Shown: positions 2,184 through 19,180 of the stretch, in pieces
Layout of the letters: every line of letters starts with the position of its first letter
Numbering within the stretch: position 1 is the stretch's first letter
DNA from: Deltaproteobacteria bacterium
Lineage (GTDB): Bacteria > Desulfobacterota > Desulfobacteria > Desulfobacterales > C00003060
Direction of reading: 5' to 3'
Assembly (NCBI GenBank): GCA_019309815.1
Contig: JAFDFO010000003.1
Location: 1 to 38,974, forward strand
Length of the DNA stretch: 38,974 nucleotides
The notes under the pieces: generated by a model
Told to the model about the DNA's origin: nothing
What the model saw: the letters and a program-made list of their open reading frames with translations, nothing else
Databases searched by the model: none
Position numbers and translations under genes: made by a program

Positions 2184-4103
2184 TTAGGTGAGGCGGGTGC
2201 CGGGTTCAGCGGGCCCGTCCACAGTGACCAACCGGCAGGTCCCCTTGTTCGTGGCAGTCAAGACCATCCCGTGCGACAGGATGCCCATCAACTTGGTGGG
2301 TTTGATGTTTGCCACAACAACGACTTGTTTTCCAATCAAATCTTCAGGATCGTAGTTTTCCGCGATTCCAGCAACCACGGTCTGGTTTTTCCCCATATCT
2401 ATCTTCAATTTGAGAAGCTTTTTTGATCTTGGCACAGGTTCGGCATCAAGGACCGTGGCGACGCGAAGATCCATTTTTTGAAACGCTTCCAGGGGAATCT
2501 CGGCCTTTTCGGAGATGGATGCTTGCTTTGACATGTTTGCCTCGCGGTCTGAGGACTGAACTTTAGTTTGCTCGATCCTTGGAAAGAGGGTAAGCGTTTT
2601 CGGGAGCTGGGTGCCGGGAGCTGTCTTCCCCCAAACGCTGAGGTCCGCAAGTGTCTGGAATGATTCTGGCGATGACATGGCCAGATGTTCTTGCATGATT
2701 CGGGCGGTCCGCGGCATGACGGGATAAATCAGCCCGGCAATGATACGGAGCCCCTCAATGATATTATACAGGACTGTCTGCAATTCTTCGTGCAGCTCCT
2801 TCCTCTTGGCAAGTTCCCACGGGGCAGTCACATCAATGTATTTGTTGATGTGGTTGATGAATTCCCAAATCGCCATCAGGGCCTTGTGAAAGGCATATTC
2901 CTCCATGGCTTCATGATAATCCTGCAATGCCTTCTCAGAGTTGGCTACCAAGGCCGAGTCCAGACCGCTTTCCGTCCCCGGGACCGCTTGTGGGACTACC
3001 CCTTTAAAGTATTTGTGAACCATGGTCAGGCTGCGACTGAACAGGTTCCCAAGGTCATTAGCCAAATCTGAGTTGTAGCGTTGAATAAAGGCCTCTTCAT
3101 TGAAGCTCGAATCAAGACCGAAGACCATCTCCCGCATCAGGAAATAGCGAAATGCATCTGCGCCGTACACTCCTTTTAACTCAAGGGGATCTACGACATT
3201 CCCAAGACTCTTTGACATCTTGGTTTCGTCCACATTCCAGTAGCCATGAACGTTCAGGTGCTGATAGAGCGGGATCCCTGCTGCCCTTAACATGATCGGC
3301 CAGTATATGCCGTGCGGTTTGAGGATGTCTTTTGCTACCAGGTGGGAGACACCGGGCCACAACTTCTCAAAGAGTTCACCATCAGGGTATCCCAAGGCAG
3401 AGACATAGTTTAGAAGGGCATCGAACCAGACATACGTCACGTAGTTGTCATCAAAGGGGAGGGTAATGCCCCATTGAAGCCGACTCTTAGGACGAGAAAT
3501 GCAGAGATCCTCGAGAGGTTCCCGCAAGAAGGCGAGCACCTCATTCTTGTAACGTTCGGGGCGTATGAAGTCAGAATTCGTGTTGACGTAATCGATGAGC
3601 CACTGTTGATATTTGCTCATCCTGAAGAAGTAATTGGATTCGCGGATCACTTCAGGAATCGTCTTGTGGTCCGGACACCTGCCATCTACCAGCTCACGTT
3701 CTGAATAGAACCGCTCACATCCAAAGCAGTATGCGCCTTCGTATTCACTAAAGTAAATGTCTCCGCTATCATAGATTTGTTGGAGGACTTCCTTAACAAC
3801 CTTGATGTGCGCCGGGTCTGTGGTTCGTATAAAGTAGTCATATTCTATATCGAGTTCGGGCCACATGGCTTTGAACAGTCCGCTGATCTGATCCGCGTAT
3901 GCCAGCGGGCTCATGCCCTCGTCCTTGGCTGCTTGGACCACTTTGTCACCATGTTCATCCGTCCCTGTGAGAAAATAGGTCTCCTCGCCGCAGATCTTGC
4001 GGAATCGATTCAAGACGTCGGCAACCACCGTTGTATAGGCATGCCCAAGGTGGGGACGGGCATTCACGTAGTAGATAGGGGTAGTAATGTAGAATACACT
4101 CAC
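2184..4103 (-). CDS. metG: Methionyl-tRNA synthetase with C-terminal tRNA-binding domain
   Basis: YITTPIYYVN, HLGH, TGTDEHG, zinc knuckle CFGCE..CPDH, KMSKS, C-terminal OB-fold (DLRVA...VVAGIA...SHGM). Confidence 0.98.
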   Translation of the reverse strand: MSVFYITTPIYYVNARPHLGHAYTTVVADVLNRFRKICGEETYFLTGTDEHGDKVVQAAKDEGMSPLAYADQISGLFKAMWPELDIEYDYFIRTTDPAHIKVVKEVLQQIYDSGDIYFSEYEGAYCFGCERFYSERELVDGRCPDHKTIPEVIRESNYFFRMSKYQQWLIDYVNTNSDFIRPERYKNEVLAFLREPLEDLCISRPKSRLQWGITLPFDDNYVTYVWFDALLNYVSALGYPDGELFEKLWPGVSHLVAKDILKPHGIYWPIMLRAAGIPLYQHLNVHGYWNVDETKMSKSLGNVVDPLELKGVYGADAFRYFLMREMVFGLDSSFNEEAFIQRYNSDLANDLGNLFSRSLTMVHKYFKGVVPQAVPGTESGLDSALVANSEKALQDYHEAMEEYAFHKALMAIWEFINHINKYIDVTAPWELAKRKELHEELQTVLYNIIEGLRIIAGLIYPVMPRTARIMQEHLAMSSPESFQTLADLSVWGKTAPGTQLPKTLTLFPRIEQTKVQSSDREANMSKQASISEKAEIPLEAFQKMDLRVATVLDAEPVPRSKKLLKLKIDMGKNQTVVAGIAENYDPEDLIGKQVVVVANIKPTKLMGILSHGMVLTATNKGTCRLVTVDGPAEPGTRLT

Positions 4104-4906
4104 GCAGCTGTCTCCTCGATGACCTGATCCAATCCGACGTCCAGCTCATCACCCTCGTCGGTCTTGATGGTGATTGATTCCTTCAACATATTTTGTCTAA
4201 GTACCTTGCCGTTCCCCAACTTCGTCCGGATCCGTTTTCCGGTTTCCGGGAACTTACATTTGAGATCACAGTATGCTTTGTGTTCAAAGGCTAAACAGCA
4301 CATCAGTCGTCCACACAGGCCCGAAATCTTGGACGGATTCAGCAAAAGGCCTTGCTCTTTGGCCATTCGAATTGACACAGGCTCGAAGTCTTTCATGAAG
4401 GTGGCACAGCAGAGAGTATGTCCGCACCTTCCGATTCCACCGCATATCTTTGCCCGGTTGCGCACGCCGATCTGGCGGAGTTCAATACGCATCCGGTACT
4501 CCTTGGTTAGCATCTTAACCAATTCCCGAAAATCGACGCGCCCATCGGCTGTGAAATAAAAGGTAAGCTTGGTGACATCAAATTGGCTTCGCACAGAAAC
4601 GAGGTTCATTTCCAGCCCAAGTTCATTGATGCATTTCTGGCAGTAGACACGGGATTTCTTTTCCATGTCCACGTTCTTTGTGTGTTGGGCCATATCCCGT
4701 TCGTTTGCCAGGCGGTAGACCTTCTTCATAGGAATCTTCGACTCTTCCTCGGTCGCCGGTCTGGGGGGTGTGGCTACAGAGCCGAACTCCAGCCCGTTCT
4801 CGGTCTCCACAATGACCTGACTGCCGGGGGAGAGCACAAACAGACCGGCATCAAGGGTGTACATCCTGCCTCCCGGTCCTACGCTTACGCCGACGATTTT
4901 ACCCAT
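4100..4906 (-). CDS. ricT: PSP1-domain / stage 0 sporulation family protein (YaaT/RicT)
   Basis: FYFTADGRVDFRELVK, RIELRQIGVR, GGIGRCG..LCC, KISGLCGRLMCCL. Start at MGKIV. Confidence 0.93.
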   Translation of the reverse strand: MGKIVGVSVGPGGRMYTLDAGLFVLSPGSQVIVETENGLEFGSVATPPRPATEEESKIPMKKVYRLANERDMAQHTKNVDMEKKSRVYCQKCINELGLEMNLVSVRSQFDVTKLTFYFTADGRVDFRELVKMLTKEYRMRIELRQIGVRNRAKICGGIGRCGHTLCCATFMKDFEPVSIRMAKEQGLLLNPSKISGLCGRLMCCLAFEHKAYCDLKCKFPETGKRIRTKLGNGKVLRQNMLKESITIKTDEGDELDVGLDQVIEETAA

Positions 4907-4944
4907 GATGGCTCCACAAAAAGTGTCCAAAAGAACAAAAAACT

Positions 4945-5205
4945 ATCACGAAAGCACGAAAGAAAACGAAAGCACGAAAAGCCTAACAATAAACAACTAT
5001 TATGAAAACACGTGATGTTCTCAAGGCACAAGCCGCAAAAGAAGAGAAAGCACGAAACAAGAGAGATGTAAACATTAGTTTACAACCCCCTCCAATTCGT
5101 TGGCGGTGCATGATCTTGTGATGACGTTCGTCCATTATATCTATCTCTTTCGTGCTTTTCTTTCACTTTCGTGTTTTGCGGCTGCGCCTTATACTGAAGC
5201 GTGAT
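4945..5205. repeat. Intergenic element bounded by inverted (AT)CACGAAA tandem arrays
   Basis: Left arm ATCACGAAAGCACGAAAGAAAACGAAAGCACGAAA (4945-4979), second direct copy at 5001-5057, inverted right arm 5148-5205 abutting the holB stop. Confidence 0.8.
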
Positions 5206-6191
5206 TAATTTCTTCCATCACCTCTCCGGAGGTGCAGGAGCATCACCTCTATGGTCAGCCGGGCATTGGCGTTTTTAGAGAGGGCCTTTTGTGCAGAATG
5301 CACAGCTTCCACTTTTTCCAAGAGCGAACTAACTGACTCCCTTTGCGAAGCCAACCGGAGCTTGGCCTCAAAGTCCTCATTAATAATCCTGTCCGGAGTG
5401 ACCTTGAACATAAGAACGTCCCTGAACCACATCATGATCATCTCCAGAGCATCGGCGAGTCTATCCTTGGCTCCGGACAAGGTCTCCGCAAAGGCAAAGA
5501 GAGGCTGAATCGTCTCTCCGGAAAGCGTTGAAATCTGCTCAACGAGACTGCTACGCCACGCTTTCCACTTTTCTACATCCATTGACAGCGCCTTGCCGAG
5601 GCTTCCCTTTGTTGTTATTGCCAGCGTCCTCGCCGTTTGCCTGTCAAGCCCCCGGTCCTCAATCAAAAGCTGCGCCACTTTTTCGTGGGGAATCGGCCTG
5701 AAAGCAATTTGCTGACACCGAGAGACAATCGTGGGAAGCAGGTCTGTTGTCTGACTTGCAGTAAGGATGAAGATTGTATGCTTGGGCGGTTCCTCCAAGA
5801 TCTTGAGCATAGCATTCGATGCTTCAAGGTTCATTGCTTGGGCATCATTGATGATCATGATCCGCCAGCCTCCCTCAAGGGGGGCGAATCTCAGCTGCCT
5901 GGATATGTCCCGCACCTGGTTAATCTTGATGAATACCCCATCAGGTTCTACGGTGACCATGTCCGGGTGGGATCCGGAAATTATCTTGTGACACGAGGCA
6001 CACTTTCCACAAGCCGACACGCCCACAGGATTCGGGCAGTTGAGCGCCATGCCCAAGGTTATAGCCGTCCTCTGTCTACCAATCCCGTCTACTCCCGTAA
6101 ACAGCAAGGCGGTGGGAATACTCCTCTTCTCAAGCATTTGGGTCAAGAACCGAGCGGGGCGTTCTTGGCCAATGATAGCATCAAACACCAT
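5205..6191 (-). CDS. holB: DNA polymerase III delta' subunit
   Basis: F..IIGQ, ALLFTG..GIG, zinc motif C...CGKCASC, HPD, A.NAMLKILEEPP, LLPTIVSRCQ. Sits upstream of PSP1-metG. Confidence 0.96.
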   Translation of the reverse strand: MVFDAIIGQERPARFLTQMLEKRSIPTALLFTGVDGIGRQRTAITLGMALNCPNPVGVSACGKCASCHKIISGSHPDMVTVEPDGVFIKINQVRDISRQLRFAPLEGGWRIMIINDAQAMNLEASNAMLKILEEPPKHTIFILTASQTTDLLPTIVSRCQQIAFRPIPHEKVAQLLIEDRGLDRQTARTLAITTKGSLGKALSMDVEKWKAWRSSLVEQISTLSGETIQPLFAFAETLSGAKDRLADALEMIMMWFRDVLMFKVTPDRIINEDFEAKLRLASQRESVSSLLEKVEAVHSAQKALSKNANARLTIEVMLLHLRRGDGRN

Positions 6192-6744
6192 CTGTATCGT
6201 TCTTCTCCACAAACCACCACTCATCTGAGGCGGTATTCAGGATCTCTTTTGCGATGGATTGACCAGCACTGGTTCTAACCCGGCCTACCACATGGGGAAG
6301 CCAGCTTTCGGGTCCATCGTTTCCTGCATCTTGCAGGGCTTTCAGTTCCAAGACAAGGGCGAGTTGATCCGCGTCATGGGCAAGCTGCGCTTCCAGGGTC
6401 TCTGCCCCATTGAACTCTTCTATGAGGTCGGCCACGGCCTCACCAAAGGGAAGATTTTCCGTAAGATCTTCAACAGCCCGAGATTCATCAACTGCAAGGT
6501 ACTTCTTTTGAACATAGTTCAGATCACCGGTTCTGGCTTCCGTGAGATCATGAATCAGGCACATCTGAAGAAGTTTCAGCGCGTCTGCTTCCGGGACCAC
6601 ATGCGACAGGACATAACCTATGAAGGTCGTCATGAAGCTGTGATCAGCCACTGATTCACTGCCAGACCCCAGGAAGTTGAACCCGGACCTTGGAATGCCT
6701 TTCAGGATTCGGGCCTCAAAAAGGAGGTTTGCTATGGATTTCAT
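6181..6744 (-). CDS. HD-domain hydrolase (YfbR/HDDC2-like 5'-deoxynucleotidase family)
   Basis: LK.IPRSG, ESVADHS, LIHDLTEARTGD, DAD.L motifs. Confidence 0.88.
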   Translation of the reverse strand: MKSIANLLFEARILKGIPRSGFNFLGSGSESVADHSFMTTFIGYVLSHVVPEADALKLLQMCLIHDLTEARTGDLNYVQKKYLAVDESRAVEDLTENLPFGEAVADLIEEFNGAETLEAQLAHDADQLALVLELKALQDAGNDGPESWLPHVVGRVRTSAGQSIAKEILNTASDEWWFVEKNDTDGV

Positions 6745-6834
6745 AAATGCTGTAGCTGCCGATCTCTGGAATATGGTGTTATTTATAAGCGTTTGGCGAA
6801 ATTTCCGGGTTTCATGGCTTCATCCGCAAAGAAC

Positions 6835-6902
6835 CAGGCCAGAGGCAAGAGGCCAGGGGCCAGAGGAAAACCTATTGCCTCTCGCCCATTGCCTCAAGCC
6901 TG
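6835..6902. repeat. Inverted heptamer tandem array (CAGAGGC-like / GCCTCTN-like)
   Basis: CAGGC-CAGAGGC-AAGAGGC-CAGGGGC-CAGAGG, AAAA loop, then CCTATTG-CCTCTCG-CCCATTG-CCTCAAG-CCTG. Confidence 0.75.
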
Positions 6903-7003
6903 ATGAAGTCGACCATACTGCTCAACGCTTGTATTCAATATTCCGTGTGTTTTCAGAGTTTACATTTATACAAAAGGGGGGAGTAAGGCAACCGGAAAAT
7001 GAC

Positions 7004-7032
7004 TTGACACCCTCAAGAACGTCATATAACTT
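7004..7032 (+). promoter_or_regulatory. Candidate sigma70 promoter for the tol-pal operon
   Basis: TTGACA (7004-7009), 17-nt spacer, TAACTT (7027-7032), about 90 nt upstream of tolQ. Confidence 0.55.
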
Positions 7033-7119
7033 CGCTCCAAAATTACACATTTTGCAAAGCTGCGTTAAGGAGAAATGACGCATTGAAAGACAGAACCCTA
7101 CCTTATTGAAAGGTGTGCC

Positions 7120-7845
7120 ATGTTGGAAGCAACGAGCAGCGACATCATTCACATGATCATTTACGCGGGCCCGATGGTTCGTCTTGTCCTATTGTTACTG
7201 CTGTTCTTTTCGGTCGTTTCCTGGGCCATCATCTTCGCGAAGTATCGGTCTATTAGAAAAGCCCGAAGAGAATCGGCCCATTTCCTTGACATCTTTTGGA
7301 ATAGCCGTGATCTTGCCGAGGCCTTTGCAGCCTCAAAACGTCTTCGGCAAAGCCCCGTTGCGAGGGTATTTCGTGTAGCTTATGTCGAACTCAGAAGGGT
7401 GAACAAATCACAGCCGGCGGCCACGGGTGACATCAATACGGACGAGGGATTGCTGACTCAAAACATGGTTGCTGGTGATAACGTCAAAAGGGCGCTGCGG
7501 CGAGCCGTCAACATGGAACTGACCGGACTGGGCAAGGCCCTGCCTTTCTTGGCAACGACCGGGAACACAACACCTTTCATCGGTCTTTTTGGAACGGTTT
7601 GGGGGATCATGAACGCCTTTCGAGGCATCGGCCTGAAAGGTTCCGCAAGTTTGGCGGTGGTGGCCCCAGGCATTTCAGAGGCCCTCATTGCAACGGCTGC
7701 AGGATTGGCTGCGGCAATACCAGCCGTTGTGGCCTTCAATTATTTCAACAATAAGGTCCATATTCTGGAATCAGAGATGCAGAATTTCTCGGCCGACTTC
7801 TTGAACCTCGTAGAACGAGACCTCATGAGGCGAAGGGGGAATTAG
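7120..7845 (+). CDS. tolQ: TolQ (MotA/TolQ/ExbB family)
   Basis: [45 protein letters not shown]. First gene of the tol-pal cluster. Confidence 0.95.
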
Positions 7846-7849
7846 ACGC

Positions 7850-8278
7850 ATGTCTATACAAGGTGGCAATAGCAGTTCCTTCATGTCGGACATAAACGTA
7901 ACGCCTCTGGTAGATGTCATGTTGGTTCTGCTCATCATTTTCATGGTCACAGCCCCGATGATGATGCAGGGGGTTAACGTGTCACTGCCAAAGACCACGT
8001 CCAAGGCGCTTCCTGCTGAAAAAGAGCATCTGATTATCACGATCGACCGTAGCCAGCAGGTTTACATTAATGACTACAAGGTTTCATTGGAGGCTCTGCA
8101 ACTCAAGCTCAAGAGGATCTATGAAGGCCGTCGTGACCGCAAGGTCTACCTTCGAGCTGACAAGGGTGTGCCTTACGGCGTTGTCGTGCGAGTGATGGCA
8201 GAAGTGAAGAACGCTGGTGTGGAGAAGTTGGGGATGGTCACCGAGCCGATGAAGGAGACCGCCAAGAGGCAAAAATAG
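7850..8278 (+). CDS. tolR: TolR
   Basis: INVTPLVDVMLVLLIIFMVTAP, LRADKGVPYGVVV. Confidence 0.95.
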   Translation: MSIQGGNSSSFMSDINVTPLVDVMLVLLIIFMVTAPMMMQGVNVSLPKTTSKALPAEKEHLIITIDRSQQVYINDYKVSLEALQLKLKRIYEGRRDRKVYLRADKGVPYGVVVRVMAEVKNAGVEKLGMVTEPMKETAKRQK

Positions 8279-8281
8279 CCC

Positions 8282-9139
8282 ATGCCTGCCCGTGCAGATC
8301 TTTGGGACCAAGGCCCGGGCACCCTCCGTGTCTGGGTCGTGATGACAGGGCTTTCCGTCCTGTTTCATGTCCTTTTTTTCTCAGGTGTTCTCTTCCTGCC
8401 TGAGTTGAGAAGCCATAGACAATATATACCGTCTAGTGTTGAGGTGGATCTTGTAAGTCTCCCGAGAGCTGCTCCCCAGGGCCAGCCAGCCCCCCGGCAG
8501 GTCGGCCCCCCCCCAAAGCCGGCGGAAGACGCGGAACCGGTGAAGCCGGAGCCAAAACCCATAGAGCCTCCTCCGCCGAAGCCAGAGCAAGTGTCCGAAA
8601 AGCCTGTACCCGTAAAACCAAGTAAGTTGGAGGTCAAGAAATCAGTAAAAAAGAAGACCTTTGATGCGTCCAAGGCCATCAAGAGTGCTATTGCGAGGAT
8701 CGAGAAGGAGGCTGTCGAATCAAGGCCACACTCGGTGCTTCAGGCCATCGATAAGCTGAAAACGGAGGTTGGCAGCGAAGGTGGGGTGGTCATGCGGGGA
8801 GGCACCGCGACGGGCGGACAAAGTAAGAAGACGATAGATCTTCTGGACATCTACAACGCCGAAATCTGGCACCAGATACAAAGGAACTGGGCCTTTTCCG
8901 AGGAGATGGTTCGAGGGCGTACTGATTTGGAAGCCACGATTATTGTAAAGATCATGAAACAGGGTGAGATACGGGATGTGTGGTTTGAAAGTAGGTCAGG
9001 CAACACGTATTTCGACGACACCGTCTTTAAGGCTGTGAAGAAATCTGATCCACTACCGCCATTGCCTGAAAGCTATCGTGGGCCCTTTTACGAAGTGGGG
9101 TTTCGTTTTAATTTGTCTGAGCTTCAAAGTGGATATTAG
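8282..9139 (+). CDS. tolA: TolA / TonB-family energy transducer
   Basis: N-terminal TM with S...H, Pro/Lys/Glu-rich linker, TonB_C-like domain (IQRNW...SRSGN.YFD...PLPPLP). Located between tolR and tolB. Confidence 0.85.
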   Translation: MPARADLWDQGPGTLRVWVVMTGLSVLFHVLFFSGVLFLPELRSHRQYIPSSVEVDLVSLPRAAPQGQPAPRQVGPPPKPAEDAEPVKPEPKPIEPPPPKPEQVSEKPVPVKPSKLEVKKSVKKKTFDASKAIKSAIARIEKEAVESRPHSVLQAIDKLKTEVGSEGGVVMRGGTATGGQSKKTIDLLDIYNAEIWHQIQRNWAFSEEMVRGRTDLEATIIVKIMKQGEIRDVWFESRSGNTYFDDTVFKAVKKSDPLPPLPESYRGPFYEVGFRFNLSELQSGY

Positions 9140-9156
9140 AGAGCAGTAAAAAATGA

Positions 9157-9367
9157 ATCACGAAAACACGAAAGAAAAAGAAAAACGAATCACGAAAACA
9201 CGAAAACAGAGTGACAGCCCTTCGGGCTGTTTCTACCGACTCCACTGCCTGCGGACTCGTCTGATAGAAGAGGAAGTTGCAGCGCGGAGCGCTGCAACTT
9301 TCTTTCTTTTTCGTGCCTTCTCTTTTCTTTCGTGCGTTGCGGCTTACGCCTTATAAAGAGGCGTGAT
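9157..9367. repeat. Second CACGAAA inverted-array element with two internal hairpins
   Basis: ATCACGAAAACACGAAA at 9157 and 9189. Inverted arm 9309-9367. Perfect hairpins at 9214-9230 and 9274-9300. Confidence 0.8.
9274..9311 (+). terminator. Possible intrinsic terminator/attenuator between tolA and tolB
   Basis: 12-bp perfect stem AAGTTGCAGCGC-GGA-GCGCTGCAACTT followed by TCTTTCTTTTT. Confidence 0.45.
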
Positions 9368-9399
9368 AATTCTTTTCTTCACTTCATCACTCCTTCGAA

Positions 9400-10740
9400 T
9401 TGGATTGTAAGAAATTGAAAAGATTACACTTTGCCGTTGTCCTGATGCTGCTCGCTGCACTGCTGTTTTGCCTGTCCAGGCCATGCGAAGCGGGGCGTGT
9501 GTATATCGACATAAATGCCCCCTATTTGAGGAAAATCCCAACAGCAATCCCGATCTTCAGGGACATGGCCGGAGGACAAACCCAGGGTCAGGTGGCAAAC
9601 AAGCTTTCCGATCTTCTGACCGCATCATTAGACTTTACGGGCTTCTTTAAGATCCTTAACCGTGAGAGCTTTCTGGAAAACTCCGAAGAAGCCGGTCTGG
9701 TGCAGCAAGAGATCAATTTCTCCAACTGGACCGTGATCGGTGCAGAGCTCCTGATAAAGGGCGGGTTCAAGTATAACGGGGACCTGCTTGAGGTAGAGCT
9801 GCGGCTTTTTGACACCTTCAGCGGTCGGCTGATTGTGGGCAGGCGCTATACGGGCCGCATGGAGGATCGCAGGCGGATCATCCACCGCTTCTGCAACGAG
9901 GTCATCCTTCGACTGACCGGCCGCCCCGGTATCTTCAGTAGCCAAATTGCCTTTGTGTCAACCACAACAGGGGTCAAGGAGCTCTACATTGCAGATTTTG
10001 ACGGATATGATCCCAGGCAGTTTACCAAGAGCGGAACGATTTCCATGTTTCCGGCCTGGTCTTCGGATGGGAGATGGCTGGCTTACACAGATTACGAGCG
10101 GGGGCAACCAGATCTTTTCATCAGGAATATTAAGAGCAAACAGGACACCGTGGTCAGCTTAAAGGGATTCAGTATTACACCGGCTTGGGTTCCCGGGCAG
10201 TTTGCTTTGGCGGCTTCCCTTTCCCATAAAGGGAACCCCTCTATCTATCTGTTGAGTGGAAGCGGAAAGATCTTGCGAAAACTGACACGCCATTGGGGGA
10301 TCGATGTCGCTCCTACGTATTCACCTGATGGTAAGAAGTTTGCGTTTGTGTCGAACCGATCAGGATCTCCCCAGATTTACATCCAAAACGTCAAAGACGG
10401 CAAGGTCCGCAGACTGACATACGAGGGGAAGTACAACTCCTGGCCCCAGTGGTCCCCCCGAGGGAACTACATTGCCTATGTGGGCTCAAGCAATACCTTT
10501 TCCGATATTTATGTGATTCGGGCCGACGGGAAGGGACGGAAGCAATTGACCCGAAATGCCGGGCACAATGAGTCCCCTACCTGGTCTCCGGACGGGACGC
10601 TTATTGCCTTTAGTTCTACCAGGGAAGGGCCGTCCAGGATCTATGTCATGAATGCGAACGGAACGGATCAACGGCGCCTGTTGGTCCTGAAGGGTGAGCA
10701 GAGCAACCCGAGCTGGTCACCGCGGCTCACCGGGCGCTGA
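9400..10740 (+). CDS. tolB: TolB beta-propeller protein
   Basis: Signal peptide, TolB_N domain, repeated P.WSPDG (PD40) motifs. Exact start uncertain (TTG). Confidence 0.96.
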   Translation: MDCKKLKRLHFAVVLMLLAALLFCLSRPCEAGRVYIDINAPYLRKIPTAIPIFRDMAGGQTQGQVANKLSDLLTASLDFTGFFKILNRESFLENSEEAGLVQQEINFSNWTVIGAELLIKGGFKYNGDLLEVELRLFDTFSGRLIVGRRYTGRMEDRRRIIHRFCNEVILRLTGRPGIFSSQIAFVSTTTGVKELYIADFDGYDPRQFTKSGTISMFPAWSSDGRWLAYTDYERGQPDLFIRNIKSKQDTVVSLKGFSITPAWVPGQFALAASLSHKGNPSIYLLSGSGKILRKLTRHWGIDVAPTYSPDGKKFAFVSNRSGSPQIYIQNVKDGKVRRLTYEGKYNSWPQWSPRGNYIAYVGSSNTFSDIYVIRADGKGRKQLTRNAGHNESPTWSPDGTLIAFSSTREGPSRIYVMNANGTDQRRLLVLKGEQSNPSWSPRLTGR

Positions 10741-13120: not shown

Positions 13121-13166
13121 TGGGATGATCAGGGGTTGGCATCATTGAGGTCCGTATCGACCCATT

Positions 13167-13256
13167 TGGAGTAATGGAGTAATGGAAGAAGCCAAGCCAA
13201 CCAGTTCTCAGGATCCACCTTCTCTTTCAGCACTCCAGTACTCCAATACTCCAGCA
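13167..13256. repeat. Inverted octamer array (TGGAGTAA / TACTCCA)
   Basis: TGGAGTAATGGAGTAATGGAA (13167-13187) faces TTCAGCACTCCAGTACTCCAATACTCCAGCA (13226-13256). Confidence 0.8.
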
Positions 13257-13943: not shown

Positions 13944-13962
13944 ATTAGAAGAAGAAAAGATT

Positions 13963-13996
13963 ATCACGAAGACACGAAAAGAACGAAAACACGAAA
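13963..13996 (+). repeat. Solo arm of the CACGAAA element
   Basis: ATCACGAAGACACGAAAAGAACGAAAACACGAAA closely matches 4945-4979. No inverted partner nearby. Confidence 0.75.
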
Positions 13997-15025: not shown

Positions 15026-15235
15026 TAGAAGATTGGAATAATGGAAGACTGGAATGATGGAAGACTGGAAGAATAGAACTATGGAAGAATGGAATAGTGG
15101 AAAATTGGAATGGTGGAGCAATAATAATCCGGAGTAATGGAGTATTGGAGTGATGGAGTAATGGTTGAGAAAAAAGATAAAGGAGTCTCTGTTTCTCGTT
15201 CCAGTACTCCAATACTCCAGCACTCCAATACTCCA
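15023..15235. repeat. Long octamer array (NNNTGGAA x12) plus inverted TGGAGTAA/TACTCCA array
   Basis: Twelve 8-nt units at 15023-15118 starting at the ruvB stop codon. GGAGTAAT-type units at 15131-15164 face CCAGTACT-type units at 15201-15235. Confidence 0.85.
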
Positions 15236-15291
15236 AAAGCGTTTGATACCTCGCATGAGTCTCAGCCGCTGTAATCCCAGCAATACCCAAC

Positions 15292-19016: not shown

Positions 19017-19180
19017 GTGAAGTCTCCCCGCCCTTCCGGGCGGGGGGTCTGCCTTGAGGCAGTGCTTCACAGCCCGGAAAGGAAATTTGCCATTCTGAGA
19101 TAGTTCCCCTCGACCCCGCCCTTCCGGGCGAGCGTTCCGCCTGGCGGCGGCAGTTCGTGTCCGGGGAGCATGCCGGTCGA
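19017..19180 (-). mobile_element. Non-autonomous IS200/IS605-like miniature element (two subterminal hairpins, no ORF)
   Basis: Two copies of CCCCGCCC-TTCC-GGGCG(GGG) at 19026-19045 and 19114-19130. Minus-strand 3' end reads ...GGGGAGACTTCAC. The opposite end recurs inverted at 18495-18511 (15/17 match). Confidence 0.55.

Follow-up and report, generated by a model that had tools for sequence, protein, structure and literature searches.

What are the three short inserts that interrupt TTCGTG repeat arms in two intergenic spacers of this stretch of DNA, and by which process did they arrive there? The stretch, referred to as the window, covers positions 1 to 38,974 (38,974 nt in full) of contig JAFDFO010000003.1 of a Deltaproteobacteria bacterium (order Desulfobacterales; assembly GCA_019309815.1), the genome of which is called the source genome. 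A first-pass annotation, made from the letters alone, had described three inserts of 22-24 nt, each splitting a TTCGTG unit between TT and CGTG. These were confirmed both by its own regular expression and by direct reading. The expression matched exactly three times in the window (5009-5038 on the minus strand; 5176-5203 and 9337-9365 on the plus strand), and not once in 100 dinucleotide-preserving shuffles of the window. The inserts themselves occupy 5013..5036 (minus strand, 24 nt; minus-strand reading GCGGCTTGTGCCTTGAGAACATCA), 5178..5199 (plus strand, 22 nt; GCGGCTGCGCCTTATACTGAAG), and 9339..9361 (plus strand, 23 nt; GCGGCTTACGCCTTATAAAGAGG). The latter two fill the last junction of a right arm and are followed by CGTGATTAAT and CGTGATAAT, respectively. 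All three are flanked by ..TT and CGTG.., have the polarity of the TTCGTG units, and lack a duplicated flank. The TTCGTG word itself is enriched in the window (37 matches versus 19.4 expected).

The answer favoured here, held with somewhat more confidence than doubt, is that each insert represents one copy of a non-coding insertion module, very small at 22-24 nt, which is of the kind of the cyanobacterial small dispersed repeats (SDRs) and is moved in trans. The analysis directly established its exact boundaries and constant polarity, the existence of both filled and empty orthologous sites, its nesting inside another module, its rapid turnover, its confinement to one lineage, and the conservation of stem and tail around a free loop.

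Module anatomy, target rule and host arrays

The assembly searched (2.88 Mb, 416 contigs) contained 37 matches to the regular expression of the first-pass annotation, and a census of the whole assembly with a looser pattern retrieved 129 modules of 22-25 nt. With spurious open reading frames (ORFs) set aside, all 129 were intergenic; the 23 modules that crude gene calls had placed inside an ORF all fell in spurious ORFs of at most 120 amino acids or in over-extended starts. The 3' tail, described in the first pass as variable, turned out to be conserved within two main classes and a rarer third one. Class A (98 modules, 86 of which are exactly 24 nt long) ends in GA[GA]AACA[GT][TC]A and includes the 5013 copy. 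Class B (31 modules, 22-23 nt) ends in AT[AG]AAGAGG, GAGAAGAGG or ATACTGAAG, and includes the 5178 and 9339 copies. The third tail class (GAACACAAT or GAACAGAAG) was seen at the outer end of CGGATTT-type arrays, where it is followed by CGGATTTATAAT (contigs C48, C89, C129, C15 and C231), an arrangement that parallels class B followed by CGTGATAAT.

From 5' to 3', the module consists of GC, a 3-bp stem GGC/GCC around a free loop of 3-4 nt, TT, and the conserved tail of 8-10 nt. Its 5' end is thus GCGGC; class A has GTA at its 3' end, and class B lacks it. In the module alignment, the fixed positions of which were mostly imposed by the search expression and the loop positions of which were unconstrained, the loop varies nearly freely while stem and tail stay fixed. 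When heads were located via the tail alone, with no selection on the head, the stem pairing was found to be kept in 121 of 124 cases (109 with GGC/GCC, 11 with both sides exchanged to GCC/GGC, and one with GGC/GTC) and broken in three. This upholds the small GGC/GCC hairpin of the first-pass annotation and supports a constraint acting on the putative 3-bp stem.

The flanks of the modules follow a simple rule. TT stands directly upstream of 117 of the 129 modules, and the base directly upstream, in the module's own orientation, is T in 118, A in nine, and G in two of them. As this base is T or A in all but two modules, at most two candidates are reversed relative to their array. Directly downstream, CG or GG was found in 102 modules and CGTG in 44 only. 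For class A, the most frequent heptamers downstream are CGGATTT (27 modules), CGTGCTT (12), GGAATTT (8), and GGGATTT (7), with T at position +7 in 94 of the 98 modules. Because of these flank counts, the host DNA can be described as arrays of heptamer-like units ending in TT, with the module sitting between two units. The target is the TT^[CG]G boundary between such units, a broader rule that is just as strict and holds in a single polarity, and not TTCGTG as such, so that the TTCGTG specificity of the first-pass annotation had to be abandoned, the head being found outside TTCGTG sites in most copies. The register of reading matters in this respect, since an insert that lies inside a TTCGTG unit lies at a junction when the unit is read as CGTGNTT.

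The host elements consist, on their top strand, of an A-rich arm, a centre, and a T-rich arm, can be folded into a long hairpin, and are built of CGTGNTT, CGGATTT, CGAATTT, GGAATTT, and other units. Their two unit arms run outward from the centre, and therefore all 31 module pairs less than 400 nt apart are divergent and none is convergent. Among the last junctions of TTCGTG arms genome-wide, 21 were filled and 37 were empty, the latter in the unoccupied form TTCGTG-N-TTTCGTGAT[ATG]. Removal of an insert thus restores an arm that does exist, as had been surmised. Within one element, one arm may have a module that the other lacks (C333; L063), and mirror arms can carry different tail classes (A versus B, at the first window locus and at L063).

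Modules also occur in and beside one another. Tandem A-A copies were found in the genome, and in a nested form (C184, C277, C416, C338 and C306) a 44-nt piece with a reversed B-like module and a swapped stem (GCC...GGC) splits a class A module. A simple class A module occupies the same place in other copies of the larger host repeat (C111 and C166). When read on its own strand, the 44-nt piece again follows TTT. On contig C72 (approximately 1500-1950), a stretch resembling a structured-RNA gene has module-bearing arrays on both sides.

Filled and empty sites in related genomes

The closest relative compared was genome G006, with 93-97% identity to the source genome in flanking genes. It contained 95 matches to the pattern, and 101 distinct modules were compared with the source genome. 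No orthologous region could be identified for 54 of these; among the other 47, 13 were shared, 19 fell in a gap, and 15 lay in diverged sequence. Nine of the 19 gaps, with a flank score of at least 0.75, were inspected. Six of them were clean indels of one module (22-24 nt) within conserved flanks, one (L068) was present in both genomes, and two (L079 and L203) were complicated. The six clean pairs (L063/C158, L067/C365, L080/C233, two in L216/C281, and L235/window) all read ..TTT^[module]^CGTG.., with no duplicated flank and neither microhomology nor a shared repeat at the junction, and the six modules involved all differ in loop or tail. Together with the upstream T in 118 of 129 modules, these pairs, differing by exactly one module, bear out the site- and strand-specific gain or loss without target duplication that the first-pass annotation had proposed. 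Replication slippage was rejected as a cause of the indels, as the junctions share no repeat.

Besides these clean differences, other forms of turnover were seen. One slot is occupied by unrelated modules of similar length in the source genome and G006 (L051/C2), and an orthologous copy has decayed at L072/C72. At the ruvA-ruvB spacer, the junction 13968|13969 is empty in the window and holds one class B module in G006, while a metagenome contig (L238, RuvA 95% identical) carries a different B variant plus a class A module one junction further in. The flanks of this spacer group the source genome with G006 (20 informative sites versus 4 and 3), and no array was found in the ruvA-ruvB spacer of more distant relatives. 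The G006 spacer between holB and the PSP1-domain gene is shorter, quite different, and made of other units, its tolA-tolB spacer has a different arrangement with a reversed, degenerate B-like module, and other congeners have yet other arrays there.

In public read data, at most 31% of the sampled words were found in any run. The contigs of runs X1, X2, X4 and X20 were used, and runs X3 and X5, with similar shares of sampled words, were left out. These contigs break at arrays and represent related populations rather than the source strain; for instance, a loose end at 4906 in X1 carries the holB-PSP1 spacer of the G006 type. Modules and host arrays change between strains that are approximately 93-96% identical in the flanking DNA compared, and break metagenome assemblies at spacers within housekeeping operons, which bears on binning and strain typing.

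Regarding distribution, at least one module match was found in 33 of the 37 genomes of the genus, with counts of 0 to 136 per genome. The full 24-nt pattern matched 5 of 301 genomes sampled from the order (155 genera), all five belonging to the source genus. The genome-wide and genus-wide searches that the first-pass annotation had called for thus yielded many further copies. A scan of bacteria and archaea with one genome per species returned at least 115 stretches. Among the 80 matches listed, nearly all were in metagenome-assembled genomes (MAGs) of Desulfobacterales or Deltaproteobacteria, and two were in MAGs labelled Proteobacteria and Gammaproteobacteria. Arrays of the CAGGTTT type were also seen to carry the module in MAGs other than the source genome, and one copy lay in sequence that is no array. 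A variant with a loop and tail of its own, present in a genome from a different family of the order, follows the same junction rule in all 15 copies viewed. A match in the haloarchaeon Halovenus was ascribed to chance, as it lay in GC-rich, coding-like sequence. Similarly, a viral origin was rejected, the 17 short-pattern matches in viral contigs being judged chance matches in a coding-like context with no upstream TT, tail or arrays. A search of positions 4800-9500 against Rfam gave no family match at E-values up to 1, except for one chance microRNA match.

Mobility in trans, its rivals and known small repeats

If the module is moved in trans, it would be gained and lost as one seamless unit, in the polarity of the T-rich strand, at ..TT^[CG]G... 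The trans-acting enzyme would most likely be a nuclease-ligase acting on single-stranded DNA that the fold-back of the palindromic arms exposes. It would recognise the mini-hairpin and the tail, and cut and rejoin at TT^ without duplication. A single-strand-acting enzyme is favoured because the polarity and the seamlessness match those of HUH Y1 enzymes acting on IS200/IS605 elements and REPs; that an HUH enzyme performs this step is a minority expectation, to which roughly a third of the weight may be given. The first-pass annotation had thought of an HUH nuclease scar, a truncated retro-insertion or a minimal parasite. The specific and seamless process stood up, and a link with an HUH nuclease, a reverse transcriptase or a recombinase did not.

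For the module, the first-pass annotation had known no matching named element. In the Nostocaceae, the families SDR1-8 were reportedly described by Elhai, Kato, Cousins, Lindblad and Costa in 2008 (Genome Res 18:1484); they are reported to be 21-27 nt long, to lie often in tandem heptamer repeats, to nest in themselves, and to have in common a hairpin with compensatory changes. To our knowledge, the means by which these cyanobacterial repeats move has been open since 2008. The module likewise lies inside heptamer arrays, with tandem A-A copies and a B-like module within A resembling the nesting reported for SDRs. Its putative hairpin has a stem of only 3 bp, which keeps pairing in 121 of 124 heads, and the 11 double swaps may go back to one event. 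In the passages available of later papers, SDR5 measures 21 nt and still had an unknown function in 2026 (PMC13756078), has its exact insertion point after the third of the HIP1 bases and before the fourth (PMC4390886), and belongs to a group of which no member was found outside the Nostocaceae (PMC5861425). As far as these passages go, SDRs thus provide a close precedent for the module in their very small size (21 nt for SDR5 versus 22-24 nt) and in the way they enter a short host sequence precisely, always at one point. The module is, in addition, dispersed in high copy number (129 copies in 2.88 Mb), and its filled and empty sites are both visible. In contrast to SDRs, it occurs in Desulfobacterales MAGs instead of Nostocaceae, uses the TT^[CG]G boundary instead of HIP1, and has a stem of only 3 bp, the comparison being one of description. 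Following this close precedent, the module would belong to a known, yet unexplained kind of element, found in a second, unrelated lineage. The passages available on small dispersed repeats and small mobile repeated elements contained none on Desulfobacterota. At this size an element has no coding capacity, and yet such elements behave as mobile DNA does. In the second lineage with SDR-like behaviour, the target rule is simple (TT^[CG]G), six pairs of filled and empty sites are seamless, and congeners have from none to over 100 copies, whereby movement of the SDR type becomes testable.

Other known systems resemble the module in part. IS200/IS605 elements insert and excise seamlessly and strand-specifically just 3' of a short invariant word, and they neither duplicate the target nor end in inverted repeats; they require a hairpin at both ends, and their length exceeds that of the module more than tenfold. 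Like them, the module inserts seamlessly and strand-specifically 3' of a fixed short word, without duplication and without inverted ends. Unlike them, it has one mini-hairpin only, no linked cognate TnpA, and no head-to-tail pair that encloses an ORF. DDE-derived miniature inverted-repeat transposable elements differ from it by their terminal inverted repeats and by target-site duplication, which is missing in the six clean events. Repetitive extragenic palindromes (REPs), REP doublets forming hairpins (REPINs) and bacterial interspersed mosaic elements, as far as the passages available of PMC3116915 and PMC3733652 describe them, are likewise short, extragenic, lineage-specific and of high copy number, form inverted hairpin pairs and motif mosaics, and are rare between divergent genes. 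Unlike REPs and REPINs, the module has neither a 20-40-nt palindrome nor a 5' GTAG or CGTC tag, and it does not lie beside a gene for a REP-associated tyrosine transposase (RAYT), the RAYT-like gene of the source genome having other palindromes at its flanks.

The host arrays have parallels of their own. Cyanobacterial short tandemly repeated repetitive (STRR) sequences are intergenic tandem heptamer arrays. The passages available on Geobacter metallireducens describe intergenic tandem heptamer "global regulator sites" (PMC2700814), and those on Beggiatoaceae describe TAACTGA repeats (PMC4679880). Like all of these, the host arrays are short runs of intergenic 7-nt units, often in inverted pairs, with no known role. 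Unlike the present case, the passages of PMC2700814 and PMC4679880 describe arrays only, and no discrete module at unit boundaries.

Several results weigh against a module moved in trans. First, most of its copy number comes from the copying of host elements and not from separate insertions, since many copies are parts of larger repeated elements. Secondly, no HUH nuclease, reverse transcriptase or recombinase tied to the module was found in gene neighbourhoods or in counts across the genus. Indeed, genes of the HUH family Y1_Tnp were present in 34 of the 37 genomes of the genus, module-free genomes included, and none of the three Y1_Tnp matches of the source genome is flanked by a module. An intact, RAYT-like Y1_Tnp ORF of 342 amino acids (C333, 15056-16370) has palindromes built of GGGGACGTCCATGA on both sides, which are unlike the module. 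Thirdly, the longer versions carrying an ORF that the first-pass annotation had suggested looking for did not appear; when orphan heads and tails up to 4 kb apart were paired, nothing came out except the nested form (73 nt) and a single spurious pair (554 nt). Fourthly, known HUH substrates have hairpins far larger than a stem of 3 bp. The 11 copies with a swapped stem may, moreover, descend from a single event or make up one subfamily, and a paired change would equally preserve a symmetric protein-binding site in duplex DNA. Fifthly, the pattern at ruvA-ruvB fits one seamless loss in the source genome as well as it fits two gains at the same junction; between G006 and L238, the B copies have 5 differences in 23 positions and the flanks approximately 9%, which leans towards separate gains. 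Sixthly, the 5013, 5178 and 9339 copies have no clean empty orthologue in G006 and the other congeners compared, because the spacers of the relative are wholly different. Lastly, neither filled and empty alleles within a population nor usable RNA evidence was seen in the contigs of X1, X2, X4 and X20, these belonging to related populations and breaking at arrays.

A RAYT link was discarded, the flanks of all three Y1_Tnp matches being free of modules. The GGGGACGTCCATGA palindrome pair recurs 2 kb from the RAYT-like ORF (C333, 13205-13297), where it makes up the centre of an element with TTCGTG arms.

The main rival, considered rather unlikely, does without dedicated mobility. Non-allelic gene conversion, or template switching during replication, would act between paralogous arms, and crossovers in identical flanking units would mimic precise indels. 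With their 58 near-identical outer ends (21 filled and 37 empty), the arms constitute a dispersed repeat, and whole spacers and arrays have been replaced between close relatives. In addition, of the 47 cases with an orthologous region, 15 lie in diverged sequence, and 13 of the 19 gaps are something other than a clean indel of one module, comprising larger differences, an alignment artefact (L068), and the overly complicated L079 and L203. The different B variants of G006 and L238 at one ruvA-ruvB junction and the unrelated modules in the L051/C2 slot fit this rival as well, and conversion within identical flanks would be traceless for TTCGTG events. However, exactly the module and nothing else was added or removed in the six clean events, and perfect identities in the flanks are short (approximately 10-25 nt). 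The presence of modules in arrays of at least five unit types, once in non-repeat sequence, and inside another module fits conversion poorly. Correction of the palindrome between arms was rejected too, since mirror partners have different tail classes and were thus not made in this way.

A second rival, which is improbable, regards the module as an ancient, intrinsic part of the arm that is subject to occasional precise deletion and to no other process. At ruvA-ruvB, a B module is present in the sister genome as well as in the outgroup allele and is missing in the source genome, so that a single loss is as parsimonious as two gains, and decayed orthologues such as L072/C72 occur. Deletion would, however, have to proceed with no direct repeat or microhomology at the junctions, and a built-in component agrees badly with only 21 of 58 outer ends being filled, with the patchy counts of 0-136 among congeners, and with the 5 of 23 differences between the B copies of G006 and L238 versus approximately 9% in the flanks. 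Furthermore, the nested and tandem forms require additions.

The weakest rival, a cis signal under selection (a protein-binding site or an outward-facing, terminator-like hairpin) with mobility being secondary, is very improbable: class B with the flanking CGTGA and a T-rich stretch scores as a terminator-like hairpin (9344-9366), the stem covariation fits a symmetric GGC-N-GCC site, stem and tail are conserved around a free loop, and spacers between divergent genes hold 4 of the 85 modules with both neighbours called versus 261 of 1488 spacers overall (indicative only, as modules cluster), but the modules point with and against the gene ahead about equally (class A 27 with and 46 against, class B 10 versus 12), differ in presence between close relatives within the same housekeeping operons, lack an Rfam match, and are not promoter-like above shuffles. 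The ATACTGAAG variant of class B weakens the terminator-like stem without compensation. A promoter was rejected as a candidate, given that no fixed spacing of sigma-70 or sigma-54 hexamers was apparent by eye, that a scan gave 3 matches versus 3.8 expected, and that no gene-orientation bias exists.

The trans-moved module may also be placed in a wider and more doubtful frame, in which mobility of the SDR type is a general route for modules of 20-25 nt. A trans-acting enzyme would splice a mini-hairpin module seamlessly at TT^ into the T-rich strand, in single-stranded form, of hairpins with heptamer arms, and this enzyme might belong to, or act with, the system of 23S_rRNA_IVP (PF05635) genes and heptamer arrays. 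Seven such genes, coding for a four-helix bundle, pass the family cut-off in the source genome, and all six that were viewed (C213, C79, C356, C35, C41 and C219) are intact and bracketed by inverted arrays of 7-8-mers, each with its own unit types. These heptamer-armed hairpins around genes associated with 23S rRNA intervening sequences share their grammar with the host arrays, which links the genes to the arrays and not to the module; the module was absent from the array brackets of all six. Across the 37 genomes of the genus, which are related and hence not independent, module counts correlated with the number of IVP genes (rho 0.60) and of Y1_Tnp genes (rho 0.49). If the wider frame holds, the genus, with 0-136 copies in 37 genomes and clean filled and empty sites, would be a comparative system for finding the enzyme. 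The AGTGCCTAA units around the IVP gene of C41 also fill the holB-PSP1 spacer of G006.

Host elements and other repeats of the window

The first window locus is a spacer of 274 bp between holB (5205-6224, minus strand) and a gene with a PSP1 domain (4100-4930, minus strand). Its left side (4943..5012, minus) holds the inner arm's terminal CGTG unit together with an additional outer TTCGTG arm (approximately 4943-4981), which has no module. The 5013 module is followed by the inner left arm itself (5037..5066, minus; CACGAAA units on the plus strand), which pairs with 5146-5177, and by the centre or loop of the palindromic element (5067..5145, no strand), between holB and the PSP1-domain gene. 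The right arm (5146..5177, plus) is made of TTCGTG units and ends in ..TTTT before the 5178 module, beyond which lies its terminal unit CGTGATTAAT (5200..5209, plus). As a single strand, 4925-5215 is predicted to fold into a long hairpin of -89.7 kcal/mol (shuffle mean -67.8, z -4.8), a stability reached by none of 200 shuffles, in which the heads of the 5013 and 5178 modules pair with each other. Each of the two modules occupies the final junction of its own arm, ahead of the terminal CGTG unit.

According to this predicted fold, the 5013 and 5178 copies are mirror partners in one hairpin-shaped element. The 5013 copy thus has the mirror position of the 5178 copy, instead of lying in a different arm unit as the first-pass annotation had assumed. 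Because their tail classes differ (A and B, respectively), the two were not simply copied from each other. The independence of the events in the window, which that annotation had derived from the position of the 5013 copy, fell away, as two of the three copies share a palindromic element and none of the three has a clean empty orthologue.

The second locus lies between a TonB_2-domain gene (8282-9139) and tolB (9400-10740). It comprises a left arm of CACGAAA units without a module (9156..9207, minus), a centre (9208..9299, no strand), and a right arm of TTCGTG units (9300..9338, plus), which ends in ..GTT before the 9339 module and has CGTGATAATT as its terminal unit (9362..9371, plus). The centre region of this tolA-tolB element contains two GC-rich hairpins, at 9214-9230 and 9269-9305, the latter having a stem of 17 pairs with T runs on both sides and resembling a two-way terminator. 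Module-free arms in the window are the outer arm at approximately 4943-4981, the left arm at 9156-9207, and the TTCGTG arm of the ruvA-ruvB spacer (13955..13996, minus), to which the empty junction 13968|13969 belongs.

Other repeats of the window share some of these traits. Inverted arrays of 8-nt units, of the TGGAGTAA type facing the TCCAGTAC type, flank ruvA-ruvB (13166-13256 and 15033-15238); they follow the same grammar with another unit and contain no module. Just downstream of metG (2079-2128), a GTAG-headed palindrome pair with 25-nt arms, 92% complementary and without a gap, resembles a REP doublet. Lastly, a GC-rich hairpin on CCCCGCCCTTCCGGGCGGGG is present at 19026-19148 in two copies, 88 nt apart.

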